The position numbers and the translations under genes were made by a program. Below the pieces are notes generated by a model, which saw only the letters and a program-made list of their open reading frames with translations, was not told the DNA's origin and did not search any database. This document shows positions 19,351 to 26,610 of a DNA stretch of 32,525 bases, one piece after another. Every line of letters begins with the position of its first letter. Positions within the stretch are counted from its first letter, which is position 1. The stretch lies in the sequence record SRR31156797_506. The stretch is one strand, 5' to 3'.

Positions 19351-20466
19351 TTAAGCAACTCCATGTTCTTGTTTAGCGCCGAAAAAGCGTAGGTAAGTAC
19401 GTTCAATAGATGGTTTGAACATGTATTCAAGTGCGCCAGAGAATAGAATCACCAGACCTTGCAGTACTACAACAATGTTACGGTCGACACCATATTCAAA
19501 GCTTAGCTCTGCACCTCCTTGATATAGGAAGCCAAACAGTAAACTTGCTAGTAGAACACCTACCGGGTGGTTACGGCCCATGAGGGCAACGGCGATACCT
19601 GTGAAACCAAAACCTTCGACAAAGTTCAGTTTGATCTGGTGTAGCTCACCTTGCAGCACATTGATGCCAAAGAAACCCGCCAGCATACCGGATAGCAGCA
19701 TAGTGATAACGATGGTTTTTAGGTAGTTGATACCCGCGTAAGAAGAGGCTGATGGATTTGCACCGATAGAGCGAATTTCATAACCCCAACGCGAATGCCA
19801 AATAAACAGCCACACAAACACACAGCACAATAACGCAAAGATGAAGCTGATATTAAGCGGGCTTGAAGCCATTTCGATACCAAACAACGCAAAAAACTCA
19901 TGCATTTTTGGTAGCCAGCTACTTACCGCAAAAACTCGGCTTTCGGTCGCCATTGTTGTTTCTGGCTTTAGGATATCCACCAATAGGTAAGCCATCAGTG
20001 ATGACGCGATAAAGTTAAACATGATGGTGGTAATAACAATATGCGAACCACGTTTAGCTTGTAAATAAGCGGGAATAAATGCCCAAGCCGCACCAAAAGC
20101 ACCGCCTGCGATAACCGCTACAGGAAATACAACATACCAAGGTGCATATTCCCCCAGAGTTAGACAGATAATACCAACCCCAAGTCCACCAATGTATGCT
20201 TGACCTTCGACCCCGATGTTAAACAGACCTGCATGGTAAGCAACCGCAACCGCGAGACCAGTGAAGATAAAGCCCGTAGTGTAGTAAAGCGTGTAACCAA
20301 AACCTTCAGCGTAGCCAAAAGCACCAGTCCACATAACTTTAATCGCATCCAACGGGTTAATGTCGATGTAAATAAATAGTAATGCTGAAACAAGAAACGC
20401 GACCAGCACGTTGATTGCAGGTAACAATCCAATCGTTACCCAAGCAGGTACTTTTGCCTGACTCAT
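19351..20466 (-). CDS. Nucleoside ABC transporter permease 1 (NupP/YufP-like)
   Basis: AGLFNIGVEGQ, VITTIMFNFIA, GYEIRSIGANP, GFTGIAVALMGRNHP. Confidence 0.92.
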   Translation of the reverse strand: MSQAKVPAWVTIGLLPAINVLVAFLVSALLFIYIDINPLDAIKVMWTGAFGYAEGFGYTLYYTTGFIFTGLAVAVAYHAGLFNIGVEGQAYIGGLGVGIICLTLGEYAPWYVVFPVAVIAGGAFGAAWAFIPAYLQAKRGSHIVITTIMFNFIASSLMAYLLVDILKPETTMATESRVFAVSSWLPKMHEFFALFGIEMASSPLNISFIFALLCCVFVWLFIWHSRWGYEIRSIGANPSASSYAGINYLKTIVITMLLSGMLAGFFGINVLQGELHQIKLNFVEGFGFTGIAVALMGRNHPVGVLLASLLFGFLYQGGAELSFEYGVDRNIVVVLQGLVILFSGALEYMFKPSIERTYLRFFGAKQEHGVA

Positions 20467-22031
20467 GCCACATCTCCCTGAATAAGGCTCTCTTTAATAT
20501 GATCTGGGACGATGTTCGCCATCATTAGACCCAATGTCTTTTCATCGGCTTGATCTGCTCGCAGTTCACCAACGATAGCCCCGTCAAATACGACCAGAAT
20601 TCGGTCGGCTAAGCTGAGGATTTCGTCAAGCTCTACCGAGACTAACAGTACCGCTTTGCCTGCATCACGGCTGGCAATAATTTGTTTATGTATGTACTCA
20701 ATTGCGCCGATGTCGACACCACGAGTTGGTTGTCCTACTAGTAAGACATCTGGGTTCTCTTCCATTTCACGTGCAATAACCAGTTTTTGTTGGTTACCAC
20801 CGGAGAAGTTTGCCGTTTTCAGATGAATATCGTTCGGGCGTACATCCCACTTATCCATGCTTTCCTGGCAGATTGTTGAGATGGCCTCTTTGTCTTGCAA
20901 CAAGCCTTTGTTGTATTTCGGCAAGTTGTGATAACCCAAGATATACGCTTCTTGAGCTTCAAATTTATTGATCAGACCTTGTTTGTGTCGATCTTCGGGG
21001 ATGTGGCCGACACCCATAGCTCTAACTTGCTGTGGATCGACGGGTGTGTCGACGGTGACCGTGTTTCCGTTCAGTTCAAAACTGCCTGACGTTGGTTTTA
21101 AGATCCCGGAAAGAAGAGATAAAATCTCAGATTGGCCATTACCAGAAACACCTGCAATACCGACCAGTTCACCAGCACGAACAGAGAAGCTGATATCTTT
21201 GACTCGCTTAACGCCACTGCTATCGACATAGCCTAAGTCGTTCACTTTAAGCAGTTCTTTGGTTGGTTTAGCTTCTGATTTATCGACTTTGAGGCGAACC
21301 TTACGACCAACCATCAGTTCAGCTAACTCTTCGCGATTGGTTTCAGCGGTTTTTACATCTGCGACCATTTGACCTTGGCGCATAACAGAAATGTTATCTG
21401 TGATGGCAAGAACTTCGCGCAGTTTGTGAGTGATGATAATGACCGTGGTCCCTTGGCTGCGTAGCTTATCCAGAATCGCGAATAGGTGGTCTGCCTCTTG
21501 AGGAGTGAGTACGCCTGTTGGTTCGTCGAGAATCAGCAGTTTCGCATCACGGTAAAGGGCTTTAAGGATTTCAACCCGTTGTTGTAAGCCTACAGGTAAG
21601 TCTCCAACAAGTGCATCTAAAGGCACATCCAAACCGTAGTCTTTCTCAATTTGAGTCAGTTTTTTTCTTGCGGCTTTTAAGCTGTCTTCTAGTTTCCAGC
21701 CAGTTTCAGCACCGAGCACAACGTTTTCTAATACGGTAAATGTGTCCACTAACATGAAATGTTGGTGCACCATACCAATACCTGAAGAGATGGCTTCTTG
21801 GGAGTTACTAGGACTATACGGTTTACCAGCGACAAACATGTCACCTGAGTTAGGATGATAAAAACCGTAGATGATGCTCATTAGGGTGGATTTGCCCGCA
21901 CCATTTTCACCTATAATGCCGTGAATCGTGCCGGATGGAACTTTTAAATCGATAGCTTTATTCGCGTGAACGGCACCAAAGCGTTTATCGATTTTTTTAA
22001 GTTCGATGGCGTAGTCTTGAGATTGCGTCAC
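20463..22031 (-). CDS. Nucleoside/sugar (CUT2) ABC transporter tandem ATPase
   Basis: GENGAGKST, LILDEPT, second domain GVSGNGQ, FSGGNQQK, QPTRGVDIGA; GTG start. Confidence 0.95.
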   Translation of the reverse strand: MTQSQDYAIELKKIDKRFGAVHANKAIDLKVPSGTIHGIIGENGAGKSTLMSIIYGFYHPNSGDMFVAGKPYSPSNSQEAISSGIGMVHQHFMLVDTFTVLENVVLGAETGWKLEDSLKAARKKLTQIEKDYGLDVPLDALVGDLPVGLQQRVEILKALYRDAKLLILDEPTGVLTPQEADHLFAILDKLRSQGTTVIIITHKLREVLAITDNISVMRQGQMVADVKTAETNREELAELMVGRKVRLKVDKSEAKPTKELLKVNDLGYVDSSGVKRVKDISFSVRAGELVGIAGVSGNGQSEILSLLSGILKPTSGSFELNGNTVTVDTPVDPQQVRAMGVGHIPEDRHKQGLINKFEAQEAYILGYHNLPKYNKGLLQDKEAISTICQESMDKWDVRPNDIHLKTANFSGGNQQKLVIAREMEENPDVLLVGQPTRGVDIGAIEYIHKQIIASRDAGKAVLLVSVELDEILSLADRILVVFDGAIVGELRADQADEKTLGLMMANIVPDHIKESLIQGDVA

Positions 22032-22251
22032 GTAAAAACTTCCTGAACTAGATTCTTATATTCAAATGAGTGCAATTAGAAACACCCAAATAAGTTATAC
22101 GCCGCTGTTGTGCAGCGGCGTATCTTCCCATTCAATTTAATCGAACAGTATTTGGCATGAACCAGGTTATTCCCCCAAGCTAGTTCAGCCAATACATCTA
22201 CTGTTGTTTCAAATTTTCTGGGTATCGTAAAACTAACAAAAAGCGTCTTTA

Positions 22252-23247
22252 TTAGTATTCACATTTGTTGTTTGACATGTAGTCGTGAACTTTGATCTTA
22301 CCCGCGATGATGTCAGCTTTTAGAGTATCCATGTAAGCTTTCATTTCGTCAGTGATCAGAGACTTGTTATTGTCATCGTAAGCCCAGTCAACCGCATTTT
22401 CTTTCAGACCAAGAGCTTTGATACCTGGTTGCCAAGTACCATTCATCTCTTCTTTCCAAGTTTCAACGGATGCAGCACCAACCAGTTTCACCATTGAAGT
22501 CAGCATAGTACCTGGTTGTAGGTGGTTTTGGTTTGAGTCAACACCAATCGCTAGTTTACCCGCATCTTTTGCTGCTTGGTAAACACCCATACCAGTACCG
22601 CCAGCTGCCGCGTAAACAACATCTACGCCTTTAGAAAACTGTGATTTAGCCAGTTCTGAACCTTTCGCTGGGTCAGCAAATGCAGCAGGTGTTGAACCTG
22701 TCATGTTTTGTAGCACAGTGATGCTTGGGTTTGCGTATTTCGCGCCTTGCTCATAGCCACACTGGAACTTACGAATAAGAGGAATATCCATACCGCCAAC
22801 GAAGCCAACAGCAGCAGATTTAGAAGCTTTAGCAGCAAGCGCACCAACAAGGAATGAGCCTTCGTGCTCTTTGAAAACGATAGATTGTACGTTTGGCTTA
22901 TCAACCACAGAGTCAATGATAGTGAAGTGAATATCTGGGAACTCAGTCGCCACTTTCTCTACCGCTGATGCCATGTTGAAACCCACCGCTACGATAGGGC
23001 TGAAACCGCGGCTAGCAAGACGACGCAAACCTTGCTCACGTTGTGCTTCGTTTTGAGGTTCAAATTCACGAACTTTTACACCTTCTTCAGCCATGACTTT
23101 TACGCCATTCTGGTAAACGGCTTCGTTAAATGATTTATCGAATTTACCAGCTGTGTCATAAATTACGGCAGGTTTAGCATCTGCAAAAGCGTTAAATGAA
23201 GAGATCGCTAAAGCAAGTGTGGAGATTTTTAGAATAGTCTTTTTCAC
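22252..23247 (-). CDS. BMP/PnrA-family substrate-binding protein (probably purine nucleosides)
   Basis: DKSFNE, FKEHEGSFLVG, GFVGGM, YAAAGGTGMG, IGVDSNQ, LTSMVK; probable GTG start 23247; SPase I-type signal (AFA-D), no lipobox. Confidence 0.92.
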   Translation of the reverse strand: MKKTILKISTLALAISSFNAFADAKPAVIYDTAGKFDKSFNEAVYQNGVKVMAEEGVKVREFEPQNEAQREQGLRRLASRGFSPIVAVGFNMASAVEKVATEFPDIHFTIIDSVVDKPNVQSIVFKEHEGSFLVGALAAKASKSAAVGFVGGMDIPLIRKFQCGYEQGAKYANPSITVLQNMTGSTPAAFADPAKGSELAKSQFSKGVDVVYAAAGGTGMGVYQAAKDAGKLAIGVDSNQNHLQPGTMLTSMVKLVGAASVETWKEEMNGTWQPGIKALGLKENAVDWAYDDNNKSLITDEMKAYMDTLKADIIAGKIKVHDYMSNNKCEY

Positions 23248-23867
23248 TGTTATATACCTATATTGCAATACCACTGTACTGAAGTTAAATATCCATATAT
23301 TGAATACATTGAAGCTGAACTGGTTTGATCGTGTATAAGTTTATCGTTTGCGCTGCAAAATAAAATCGAATACCTCACACCAAATCACATTTTTTTTCCT
23401 TCCGATAAAATAGCTAATTAGTTATGTTTCAAAAATGTTAATTAATGAGTTCCAATCTTCATCGATCTCACTATTTTTGTGATTTCACTCACCAAGTTAG
23501 TGCAAAAAATATGTCTGAAGTAAATTGTGAACCTCTGTAATTCAAAACCAATGCTTCTAAGCAAATGCCAAGCCAATCTAATTTACTGCGGTAGACAATA
23601 AAGATGTGCTGTGGATCTACATTTGTGTTCAGGATGAATGAAAGATGTAATGTTTTATTGTGATGCAAGGCGCAAATTTTTGTTTAGTATTAAATCAAAT
23701 CTTAGTCGCAAAATTGTAAATAAAGTCGGCTATCGTGCTGTTAAGTTCGTCCAATGTGCCTGTTTCTTTTTGTAGCAAACGGTTGCTGGCTTTTTGCATG
23801 AATGGACTACAATTTGTTGGTGGTATGTTGCCTTTTCTGACAAAAAAGCTGCCAATTGCCTTTTATT

Positions 23868-23962
23868 TGTGAGTTATGTCTTGTTTTTAAATGCAACCTG
23901 TAGGTATTACCTAAAAATGCGTGATGTATGTATTACTTTTTTATTTGGTAGATGCGTATAAT
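23868..23962 (+). promoter_or_regulatory. nupC promoter with two CRP-like sites 52 bp apart flanking a CytR-like half site
   Basis: TGTGA-N6 (23868-23883), CGTGA-N6 (23920-23935), aatgcaac (23890-23897), TATAAT 23957-23962; centres near -93.5 and -41.5. Confidence 0.7.
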
Positions 23963-24025
23963 CCACTCCCGAAAACAACCCAATGTTTAACACGCCAAAT
24001 TAAACTTATAAGGAAGCCATAAACT

Positions 24026-25300
24026 ATGAGCCTGTTTATGAGCCTAGTCGGTATGGTAGTTCTAATTGCAATTGCAGTTTTACTATCTAGCAACCGCAAA
24101 GCTATTAACTTACGAACTGTGGGTGGCGCTTTTGCTATCCAATTTGCACTAGGTGCATTTGTACTATACGTCCCATGGGGCCGCGATCTACTTGCTGGTT
24201 TCTCTAACGGGGTATCTAACGTTATTAACTACGGTAATGACGGCACATCTTTCTTATTCGGTGGTCTTGTTTCTGACAAGATGTTCGAAGTGTTCGGTGG
24301 CGGTGGTTTCATCTTCGCTTTCCGTGTTCTTCCTACACTAATCTTCTTCTCTGCACTTATCTCAGTTCTTTACTACCTAGGCATTATGCAATGGGTAATC
24401 AAGATTCTTGGTGGTGGTCTGCAGAAAGCTCTTGGTACATCTCGCGCGGAATCTATGTCTGCAGCAGCTAACATTTTCGTTGGTCAAACTGAAGCTCCAT
24501 TGGTAGTTCGTCCGTTTGTTCCAAAAATGACCCAATCTGAGCTGTTTGCAGTAATGTGTGGTGGCTTGGCTTCTGTTGCTGGTGGTGTTCTTGCGGGTTA
24601 CGCATCAATGGGTGTACCTCTAGAGTACCTAGTTGCAGCATCATTCATGGCAGCTCCGGGTGGTCTACTATTCGCTAAGATTCTTTTCCCTGAGACGGAC
24701 AAGCCTCACGAAGACTTTGCTGAAGCATTGGACGGTGGTGATGACAAACCAGCTAACGTTATCGACGCAGCGGCTGGCGGTGCGGCAGCAGGTCTACAAC
24801 TAGCGCTAAACGTTGGTGCAATGCTAATCGCATTCATCGGTCTAATCGCTCTTCTAAACGGTGTCCTTGGTGGCGTTGGTGGTTGGTTCGGTATGCCTGA
24901 ACTAACTCTAGAGCTTCTACTAGGTTGGGTTTTTGCTCCTCTAGCATTCGTTATCGGTGTGCCATGGGAAGAAGCAACCATTGCGGGTTCATTCATTGGT
25001 CAGAAGACTATTGTGAACGAGTTCGTAGCTTACCTGAACTTCGTGCCATACGTAGGTGAAAATGCGCAAGTTATTGCGGCAACGGGTCAAGTGATGTCTG
25101 AGAAGACTCAAGCAATCATCTCATTCGCACTATGTGGTTTCGCGAACCTATCTTCTATCGCGATTCTATTAGGTGGCCTAGGTAGCTTAGCTCCAAACCG
25201 CCGTGGTGATATCGCACGTATGGGTATCAAAGCAGTTATTGCTGGTACGCTATCTAACTTGATGGCAGCAACAATTGCTGGCTTCTTCATCTCTTTCTAA
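24026..25300 (+). CDS. nupC: Concentrative Na+/nucleoside transporter (CNT/NupC family)
   Basis: [39 protein letters not shown]; upstream of the deo operon. Confidence 0.95.
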
Positions 25301-25338
25301 TTTGATTTAGAGAACGATTTATAGACGCCATTTAATTT

Positions 25339-25374
25339 CACCCCGTAGCAAGAATATTGCTGCGGGGTGTTTTT
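25339..25374 (+). terminator. nupC intrinsic terminator
   Basis: caccccgtagcaa-gaata-ttgctgcggggtg-ttttt. Confidence 0.9.
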
Positions 25375-25529
25375 GTTTTTCAGAGCATAGAAAACTCGTT
25401 ATTTACGGTATCGTTTGCTTGGAAAGCCTTGTTACTCAAGGGTGTAGGAAACTGTACATTTTTTGAGATACAAACCGTTTGCGCTCCTATTCGGACTACA
25501 GTTTTGTGATAAATATCTATACTGTATTC

Positions 25530-25830
25530 ACTGCCGAGGGAAGTATGCGGAATATGAATACGACGTAGGACGTAAAGTTTCGGATAAACCAGTTTATACG
25601 TCGTAAAATGTGGGGCATTGGTATTGCCCAGAATTTTTGAGACACCGCAATCACAGATTGTTGTGCCATAGGCCCTAATGGGTACTGTGCGGTGACAAGG
25701 ATAGCAATTGGCGACTATTTTAGTCACCGAGTCTTCAGGGAACCAAGTCCGTTCATTTGTAACTATCAATTGAGACGTATGGTCGTCTTTTTGATAGAAA
25801 ACTAATTGAATATACTTATCGGAGTTAGAA
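25530..25830 (+). ncRNA. Candidate structured 5' leader (or sRNA) upstream of deoC
   Basis: TATACT at 25518-25523 followed by at least five stem-loops found by eye (see findings); no known family recognised. Confidence 0.5.
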
Positions 25831-26610
25831 ATGAGCGATTTAAAAGCAGCAGCACTACGTGCACTTAAACTGATGGATTTAACGACACTGAATGACGATG
25901 ATACGGATGCGAAAGTTATCCAACTTTGTCATGATGCAAAGAGCCCAGTAGGCAACACAGCTGCGATTTGTATTTACCCTCGCTTTATTCCTATTGCTAA
26001 GAAGACCCTACGCGAACAAGGTACTCCTGAAGTACGTATCGCAACTGTAACTAACTTCCCTCACGGTAATGATGACGTAGAAATTGCGGTTGCTGAAACA
26101 AAAGCAGCAGTCGCATACGGTGCAGACGAAGTAGACGTAGTTTTCCCTTATCGTGCGCTTATCGCTGGTAATGAGAAAGTAGGTTTTGACTTGGTTAAGC
26201 AATGTAAAGAAGCGTGTGGTTCAGATGTTCTACTGAAAGTCATCATCGAAACGGGTGAACTTAAAGAAGAAGCACTTATCAAGAAAGCTTCACAAATCTG
26301 TATCGAAGCGGGTGCAGACTTCATCAAAACTTCAACAGGTAAAGTGCCAGTAAACGCAACACCTGAATATGCACGTATGATGCTAGAAGTGATTCGCGAT
26401 ATGAACGTTGCAGAAACTGTCGGTTTCAAACCTGCGGGTGGTGTTCGTACAGCAGAAGATGCGCGTGATTACCTAGCAATGGCTGATGAAATCCTAGGTG
26501 ACAACTGGGTTGATAGCCGTCACTACCGTTTCGGTGCGTCAAGCCTGCTAACTAACCTATTAAATACATTAGAAGTAACAGACGAAACAGCTGATCCAGC
26601 AGCTTACTAA
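25831..26610 (+). CDS. deoC: Deoxyribose-phosphate aldolase
   Basis: [27 protein letters not shown], Schiff-base [26 protein letters not shown]. Confidence 0.98.

Follow-up and report, generated by a model that had tools for sequence, protein, structure and literature searches.

Introduction

The deo operon of E. coli, together with nupG and tsx, is under the control of the DeoR and CytR repressors, and deoxyribose 5-phosphate is the inducer of DeoR. The E. coli deo promoters use multiple distant operators, and this system is the textbook case of control by proteins. Nucleoside and extracellular-DNA scavenging is also central to the feeding of vibrios and related marine bacteria. Two kinds of RNA-level control are relevant here. 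The adenine riboswitch of a Vibrio add gene, which belongs to the purine riboswitch family, is a translational ON switch. CsrA and RsmA recognize A(N)GGA sites, preferably in hairpin loops, with two sites per dimer that lie tens of nucleotides apart, and in classical CsrA repression one of these sites overlaps the Shine-Dalgarno sequence. Here, we describe the leader of deoC, the gene for deoxyribose-phosphate aldolase, on a stretch of 32,525 nucleotides from sequence record SRR31156797_506. We term this whole stretch the window and give all positions in its numbering. The leader harbors an element of about 100 nt at 25658..25759, conserved in many families of marine bacteria, that is very probably a functional cis-regulatory leader RNA. 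A reading of this leader made earlier from the letters of the window (the sequence-only reading) had proposed a set of mutually exclusive stems and a new regulatory RNA. We have compared both proposals with related loci.

Results

The comparison set comprises 80 Vibrionaceae species loci from Vibrio, Aliivibrio and Photobacterium (81 sources including the window), and the DeoC proteins of these species are 83-95% identical to that of the window. BLAST of the nupC-deoC gap against the 80 loci returns as conserved blocks the terminator, 70 nt at 25459-25527, 120 nt at 25640-25757 and the ribosome-binding region. Upstream of deoC, 74 of the 80 loci have an exact match to a 22-nt pattern with GTCCGTTCA at its end, and the other 6 differ from it by one change. 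In the alignments invariant blocks alternate with hairpins that differ in sequence while their arms stay complementary. We built a covariance model, R1, on a structure of four helices (PA, P1, P2 and P3), and cmsearch with R1 scores the element of the window, consisting of these helices, the junction J3/1 and the start of the tail, at 95.9 bits (E 5.6e-21).

All parts described here lie on the + strand. The hairpin P0 (CACCGCAAUC / GAUUGUUGUG, 25643..25665) comes first and shares the last nucleotides of its 3' arm with the outer GUG of the hairpin PA (GUGCC... / ...GGGUAC, 25663..25685). The 5' strand of P1, UGUGCGG, follows at 25686..25692 with its core GCGG at 25689-25692 and pairs with 25749-25755; its consensus is UGxGCGG / CCGyxCA with the short core GCGG/CCGU. 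The mini-hairpin P2, UGACAAGGAUAGCA (25693..25706), presents the loop A-N-GGA-U with its GGA at 25699-25701. In other lineages P2 is a clean stem of 4-5 bp round an NGGA loop, for example GAGA-UGGA-UCUC or CGAGA-AGGA-UCUCG. P3 (UUGGCGAC ... GUCACCGA, 25708..25730) is a variable hairpin on the conserved base AUU / RA. Between P3 and the 3' strand of P1 stretches J3/1, an 18-nt single strand at 25731..25748 (GUCUUCAGGGAACCAAGU in the window, consensus GUCUUCANGGAACCAAGU), the columns of which are invariant in 73 sequences except for the N of a second A-N-GGA motif (G25738 in the window). The P1 3' strand CCGUUCA and the tail UUUGUAACU occupy 25749..25764, and 25750-25764 forms the predicted anti-start-codon strand. 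The hairpin PC (25763..25797) is present in the fold and is enclosed by the tail/start-codon helix. In 73 distinct relatives the segment equivalent to PC is variable in sequence and structured, with a median z of -2.67 and values below -2 in 84%. In 29 of the 73 PC is followed by a U-run, which the window lacks.

A peculiar arrangement is seen in Vibrio sp. UCD-FRSSP16_30 (L062, 2172-2413), where the element is split by about 140 nt of unrelated sequence. PA, the P1 5' strand, P2 and P3 are located at ~2172-2245, J3/1 and the P1 3' strand at ~2386-2413, the intervening sequence is flanked by ACCAA on both sides, and the sister species (L063) has an intact element. This looks like a small insertion with target duplication.

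Covariation supports PA, P2 and P3 and, in part, P1. When 73 distinct sequences are aligned by plain MAFFT, 92.4% of the cells are paired, compared to 30-45% when the partners are slid by 1-3 columns, and 15 of the 22 pairs change on both sides (score 0.336 vs <=0.086; none of 500 shuffles scored as high); that the structure was derived from the same sequences favours the paired-cell figure, not the double-change counts. In the model-fitted alignments both-side changes are seen in 17 of 22 pairs for the 82 Vibrionaceae matches and in 18 of 22 for the 67 order-wide matches. RNAalifold by itself recovers PA, P1 and P3, and the column pairs with the highest mutual information are those of P3, P2 and PA, while the signal as a whole is carried mostly by P3 and PA. 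All six pairs of PA show changes on both sides, as do 6-7 of the 7 pairs of P3, where up to 6 pair types occur per position. The closing pairs of P2 covary as well (UA/CG/GC/UG and GC/UA/AU/CG). In P1, GC to AU and CG to UA double changes occur in single lineages and G-U to G-C changes in 12-30 sequences; the predicted P1 is the weakest helix, with its 4-bp core. For P0 the test used 32 of the 57 distinct Vibrio sequences, the 25 most divergent ones, which MAFFT could not align in this part, being left out. Here both partners change in 6 of 10 pairs, and the share of paired cells is 85.6%, compared to 24-54% after sliding. A mutual-information scan found no further helix or pseudoknot. RNAalifold proposed a contact between GA of the P2 loop and UC of J3/1, which involves invariant columns only and is uninformative either way.

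The sequence-only reading had called the leader densely structured. The 301-nt stretch is indeed more stable than its shuffles (z -4.54), but so is the reverse strand (z -4.05); since both strands fold better than shuffled sequence, stability alone does not assign a strand. The assignment comes from G-U pairs. They dominate three positions of the helices (in 59, 48 and 39 sequences), and since the other strand would carry A-C mismatches at these places, they argue for an RNA on the + strand.

The stems of the sequence-only reading, H1 to H5, are all present in the window at the coordinates it listed, and so are the TATACT at 25518-25523 and a leader of about 300 nt before the deoC ATG at 25831. 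However, the predicted conserved helices are P0, PA, P1, P2, P3 and PC, not H1-H4. H1 is a perfect inverted repeat (arms 25559-25567 / 25597-25605, 9 nt, 100% complementary), and H2 consists of GGGCA/TGCCC at 25613-25629, followed by AGAATTTTTG, and was flagged as terminator-like. Both are hairpins specific to the window (25559..25629, + strand) in a variable spacer, and the segment that holds them, 25531-25634, has no BLAST alignment to any of the 80 related loci. H2 with the following AGAAUUUUUG (25613-25639) has the appearance of a terminator between the predicted transcription start and the conserved element; several relatives carry a GGGC...GCCC hairpin at the place of H2 without a U-run. 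Hairpin and U-run may be either an attenuator specific to the window or a product of chance. H5 (25763-25797) is the stem that we term PC and is part of the minimum-energy fold.

The proposed switch between H3 and H4 did not survive the comparison. H3 (CACCGCA 25643-49 / TGCGGTG 25688-94) is read directly from the sequence. In the MAFFT alignment of the same 32 Vibrio sequences 87.1% of its cells are paired, yet not a single pair changes on both sides, a result identical to that of the shuffle control (500/500). In 20 of these 32 sequences, including the window, UGCGGUG is a perfect partner for the 5' arm of H3, and P0 contains a C-U mismatch. H3 is thus a possible clade-specific alternative pairing without comparative support. 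The arms of H4 (25690-25704 / 25715-25729) are 80% complementary over 15 nt, and H4 is complementary at 7 of 7 positions in only 2 of 79 distinct sequences; it appears in the window because the P3 3' arm of this species happens to match the conserved CGGUGAC. We therefore rejected H3 versus H4 as a conserved switch on grounds of covariation and conservation. Mutual exclusion as such holds at another place, since there is comparative support for P1 as an alternative to the helix that the P1 3' strand and the tail form with the start of deoC.

The translation initiation region of deoC (25821..25837, + strand) has GGAG at 25821-25824 and the AUG at 25831-25833. Positions 25750-25764 (CGUUCAUUUGUAACU) and 25823-25837 (AGUUAGAAAUGAGCG) form an inverted repeat, 87% over 15 nt, of which the second arm covers part of the Shine-Dalgarno sequence and the AUG. 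The energy of the tail/start duplex is -15.6 kcal/mol compared to -5.6 ± 2.0 kcal/mol for shuffled targets (0.3% as good), and in a fold of 25640-25860 the helix has a probability of ~0.99 and encloses PC. Because the tail strand begins with the P1 3' strand, P1 and the tail/start helix are mutually exclusive. Complementarity of the tail to the AUG was found in all six Vibrionaceae representatives (shuffle quantiles 0.3-6.7%). Other lineages use the tail differently. In one of them the tail CUCGCCAAC pairs with the Shine-Dalgarno sequence GUUGGAGAG at 8 of 9 positions, with 3 of 4 at or below 6%. A third lineage has a tail that pairs with CAGAAUARCUACCG just before a terminator-like hairpin (8 of 10 copies), and in a fourth a hairpin with a U7 run comes directly after the element. 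A fixed sensor combined with lineage-specific outputs on the P1 3' strand is, by analogy, the usual signature of a riboswitch.

The distribution of the element follows deoC. Each of the 81 Vibrionaceae sources has one match to R1 upstream of deoC, on the + strand; L062 shows an additional, weak one. The element is likewise single in all 5 whole genomes of relatives that were scanned. In the order to which the family belongs, R1 matches 33 of 151 genomes, and the J3/1 pattern is present in 87 of 401 genomes compared to 2 of 401 for a reversed-pattern control. Within the sample of 151 the element occurs in 41 of the 78 genomes with a DeoC homologue, always adjoining deoC, and in none of the 73 without one. 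Of 30 further loci with the pattern, 29 directly precede the gene of a DeoC homologue with 68-78% identity; the thirtieth is a chance match elsewhere. The orientation is that of deoC or nupC in 81 of 81 sources, in 30 of 30 model matches in 29 further loci and in 29 of 30 pattern loci. A second model, R2, gave only two weak matches (E 0.002 and 0.006) among 150 other genomes in a class-wide sample, so that no spread beyond the order was found in the genomes searched, and none of the complete E. coli genomes has a blastn match to the core (25640-25765).

Ten genomes carry two copies of the element, and in some lineages a copy also stands before a nupC-family gene. One locus (L115) has a copy before each of two genes, a nupC-family transporter gene and deoC. 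Another (L117, genome G140, 1529-2137) has two copies 520 nt apart upstream of deoC, with a MarR-family gene upstream. Between these copies lies a stretch of 56 residues that is 64% identical to NupC residues 131-177; it is what is left of a transporter gene that the first copy used to control. Two DeoC paralogues occur in some genomes, and in two examples, G006 and G125, the element stands before the paralogue with 72% identity to the DeoC of the window and not before the more similar one (79-80%). In one lineage (L115, L116, L118, L095-L102) the leader extends for another 230-280 nt between the element and the deoC or nupC start. These extended leaders contain a third UUCAUGGAUA motif, three direct AUAGUUA repeats and a terminator-like hairpin, and two or three TTGGTTTATAA repeats stand just before the ribosome-binding site, possibly as operator boxes or a second promoter.

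As the sequence-only reading had suspected from the lack of consensus loops, no Rfam purine or 2'-dG riboswitch model matched the leader. The Rfam check that it had called for identified no known family: a cmscan of 25250-25900 against Rfam 15 (4227 families, E <=10) gave no match on the element, and a scan of seven diverse loci at E <=1 likewise gave none. The only matches within 25250-25900 are on the nupC terminator (25287-25459), all below the gathering score. One of them, the Rfam trpB motif at 25294-25379 (30.4 bits vs a gathering score of 59, E 0.034), was dropped since its alignment covers the terminator hairpin and U-run only; we read it as a plain terminator. A full-text literature search, with most subscription journals outside its coverage, found no description of a deoC or nupC leader RNA, and the term 'VC2350' was absent from the main texts in this search. 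We class the element as a cis-regulatory leader RNA and candidate riboswitch without a match in Rfam 15 or a description in the literature searched.

Upstream of the element the block 25459-25527 can be aligned in 69 of the 80 loci. It contains the box TTTTGAGATACAAACCGTTTGC (25461..25482, + strand), nearly invariant across these 69 loci and the window, with the palindrome CAAAC-C-GTTTG at 25471-25481. At a fixed distance from the box follows the -10 hexamer TATACT (25518..25523, + strand), which is TATAAT in most relatives and has the conserved columns T.ATA.T. We predict from these signals that transcription of deoC starts near 25530. As the conserved box and -10 hexamer stand upstream of the element in 69 of 80 loci, the element is placed inside the leader. 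The box, an odd-spaced palindrome ~50 nt upstream of the predicted start, is probably the operator of a transcription factor for the deo operon, to judge from the letters, and such a factor would bind there. A second exact copy of its palindrome CAAACNGTTTG was not found in the window, so that no regulon can be read from the box. Transcription across the leader is suggested by RNA-library contigs of relatives that bridge the element core and deoC, one metatranscriptome contig spanning 25640-26180; these contigs come from relatives only, show no start sites and may include DNA carry-over. No RNA sequencing runs of the same species were found (shares <=0.16 for RNA rows).

The order at the locus is nupC, terminator, a gap of 530 nt, deoC, deoA, deoB and deoD. 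nupC (24026-25300) encodes a protein with Pfam nucleoside transporter domains and is followed by a strong terminator at 25339-25369. deoC (25831..26610, + strand; Pfam DeoC, E 4.2e-44) is the first gene of deoC-deoA-deoB-deoD, and the genes 3' of it encode thymidine phosphorylase, phosphopentomutase and purine nucleoside phosphorylase. Divergent from nupC, on the - strand at 20463-23274 of the window, lie the genes for a Bmp/PnrA-type substrate-binding protein and an ABC ATPase, likely a nucleoside ABC importer. The region between them and nupC, 750 nt at 23275-24025, is a divergent promoter region. Because nupC, deoCABD, the Bmp/PnrA-type protein and the ABC ATPase sit together, the neighbourhood is a nucleoside-use island.

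Discussion

The sequence-only reading had interpreted the leader as an undescribed cis-regulatory RNA tied to nucleoside catabolism. This interpretation is upheld, because the element is conserved across the family and order, covaries and has no Rfam match, although the anatomy drawn for it was mostly wrong. The role of the element is probably to turn translation of the operon for nucleoside breakdown on and off. Whether it does so as a metabolite-binding riboswitch, an ON switch for deoxynucleoside catabolism, is in our view an evenly balanced question. A mechanism of this kind, which is the explanation we prefer, can be outlined. The deoC mRNA would start near 25530 and carry the folded sensor domain 25658-25759, in which P1 would close a junction that holds P2 with its loop A-N-GGA-U, P3 and the single-stranded J3/1. 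Without effector the tail/start-codon helix would form around PC and block deoC translation. Binding of the effector to the junction would hold P1 shut and free the start region, and deoC would be translated. The effector would most likely be a small metabolite of deoxynucleoside breakdown, with deoxyribose 5-phosphate as the first candidate; we infer both the existence and the identity of this ligand, as we infer the alternation of P1 and the tail helix in vivo and the direction of the switch. The polarity, in which a closed P1 means a free start, fits the induction of a catabolic operon.

Several observations agree with a riboswitch that senses a small molecule. The sensor helices covary (15-18 of 22 pairs) around an invariant junction, J3/1, the putative expression platform shares nucleotides with the sensor, and the gene association is with one pathway across distant taxa. 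The pathway-bound distribution, the covarying scaffold with its invariant junction and the varied platforms all speak for a small molecule, as do the targets, the deo operon and a nucleoside transporter, which are like those of E. coli DeoR. Going one step further, the element may represent a new riboswitch class for a deoxyribose-derived metabolite (deoxyribose 5-phosphate, deoxyribose 1-phosphate or a deoxynucleoside) that controls the deo operon and nucleoside transporters. Within a large gamma-proteobacterial order, Vibrio, Aliivibrio and Photobacterium included, about one in two genomes with deoC would have it, and it would turn on translation or, in other lineages, transcription. We put forward this wider proposal tentatively, as somewhat more likely to fail than to hold.

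A number of findings weigh against a metabolite-operated ON switch. P1 is short (4-7 bp), compensatory events in it are few, and in the lineage of L107, L109 and L110 it contains a C-A mismatch. The fold with H4 and the tail helix exceeds the consensus fold of the window in stability by 17 kcal/mol (-61.7 vs -44.5), and in the fold of 25640-25860 the pair probabilities of P1, P2 and P3 are ~0. With such an energy gap the sensor fold would need kinetic trapping during transcription or strong stabilisation by the effector. Complementarity between the tail and the start region was not significant in several other lineages. The evidence for transcription of the leader, the RNA-library contigs of relatives that bridge core and deoC, is weak. 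Two leaders within one genome are nearly identical over ~350 nt, and hence the association with nupC may reflect few duplication events. Both GGA motifs moreover read A-N-GGA with a free N (A, G, U or C), one of them in a covarying hairpin loop and with P3 between the two, and much of the invariant sequence would be accounted for if the effector were a protein.

The last point leads to a protein-binding leader, in which a CsrA dimer or a pathway-specific RNA-binding protein grips the GGA of the P2 loop and that of J3/1. Binding would either stabilise the junction and so free the start codon (activation) or change mRNA decay; the logic of the RNA switch would stay as above, with a protein as effector and the global carbon status as signal. 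We consider this explanation, the main rival, less likely, but it has substantial points in its favour. The P2 loop A-N-GGA-U is an A(N)GGA site in a hairpin loop, and the second GGA (25739-25741), 40 nt after that at 25699-25701, is within reach of a dimer. Most of the invariant nucleotides outside P1 lie within or flank the A-N-GGA motifs, and one lineage has the third UUCAUGGAUA motif just after the element. Neither motif overlaps the Shine-Dalgarno sequence, however; in 74 loci there are 55-151 nt between the end of the motifs and the start codon, and the distance of the GGA motifs from the Shine-Dalgarno sequence is 75-150 nt or more. To our knowledge, known CsrA sites need less than a covarying multi-helix scaffold with an 18-nt invariant junction, which the element has in excess of such needs. 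The tie to one pathway (none of 73 genomes without DeoC) and the single copy in 5 of 5 genomes are unusual for the site of a global regulator, and E. coli has CsrA, yet no detectable copy of the element. As to expression, Table S1 of PMC7858070 lists for a V. cholerae csrA mutant, in stationary phase only, a decrease of deoC RNA by 2.7-fold (FDR 0.035; FDR, false discovery rate) and of VC2348 RNA by 4.6-fold (FDR 0.018), while the neighbouring nupC is unchanged there. The V. cholerae nupC has no element, and the lower RNA of the deo operon with unaffected nupC (PMC7858070) therefore speaks for CsrA. However, according to the parts of the study considered here, 712 genes change in the mutant in stationary phase and rpoS is itself a target, which makes the effect weak evidence, and the binding assays in these parts covered RNAs other than deoC (PMC7858070).

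An improbable alternative is a structured leader without a dedicated effector, acting as a standby platform, as a target of RNase E or RNase III or as a folding chaperone of the start helix, or else a docking site for a small RNA. J3/1 is a long conserved single strand, like the docking sites of small RNAs or ribosomes, the tail/start helix is very stable in the window (~0.99), and short leader transcripts could arise, given the U-run after PC in 29 of 73 relatives. A passive element would, however, hardly need an 18-nt junction that stays invariant across families while its helices drift, and the outputs that different lineages have built on one and the same P1 3' strand suggest an alternation under regulation. 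A small RNA would be expected to pair through a continuous seed, with which a free N halfway along the junction agrees poorly. That the conserved block acts as DNA, namely as an operator downstream of the promoter with incidental RNA helices, is hardly credible: both strands of the region fold equally well, GTCTT-N9-AAGTC in J3/1 is an imperfect inverted repeat and the E. coli deo promoters do have multiple distant operators, but compensatory changes that keep three hairpins of unrelated sequence, G-U pairs that are frequent on the + strand only and the constant orientation with deoC or nupC (81/81, 30/30 and 29/30) argue against an operator.

If the proposed riboswitch is real, the DeoR repressor would have a counterpart made of RNA, and a sugar phosphate from DNA breakdown would gain its first riboswitch. 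An RNA sensor at the deo position would show that a large bacterial group solves this control at the level of the mRNA, and a compact ON switch, ~100 nt long and operating by a mask on the start codon, would become available as well. Should CsrA turn out to be the effector, this protein would have in the element an activation site that is embedded in structure and unusually well defined.

The relation to known systems can be summarized as follows. Control by DeoR and CytR has the same kind of targets, a deoC operon and a nucleoside transporter, and the signal proposed here is the inducer of DeoR. However, proteins act on DNA there, while we propose an RNA that acts on the mRNA. A DeoR homologue (E <=1e-60) is found in 11 of the 151 genomes, none of which is among the 41 element-positive ones, where ~3 would be expected by chance; this exclusivity is not significant, is uncorrected for shared ancestry and is suggestive at best. 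The leaders and sponge RNAs of CsrA/RsmA share with the element two A-N-GGA motifs with a free N, one in a hairpin loop and spaced by a hairpin. Unlike them, the element is bound to one pathway, occurs as a single copy and has its motifs far from the Shine-Dalgarno sequence within the covarying P1-P2-P3 scaffold. Like the orphan riboswitch candidates known from comparative genomics, it combines covarying helices and conserved nucleotides in the junction with a coherent gene context and with expression platforms that vary; unlike those already catalogued, it stands outside the 4227 families of Rfam 15 and the literature searched, and it would add an orphan motif with a narrow list of candidate ligands. 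A parallel in architecture is that to the purine riboswitches. In both cases a three-helix junction is closed by P1, the 3' strand of P1 would pair alternately with the translation start, and the ON switch, here a proposed one, precedes a nucleoside or nucleobase gene in gamma-proteobacteria. In contrast to the purine and 2'-deoxyguanosine switches, the element matches no Rfam model and its P2 is an NGGA mini-hairpin of 3-5 bp; and where purine riboswitches have a long P2/P3 loop-loop pair, the element has none and instead places an invariant J3/1 of 18 nt in its junction.

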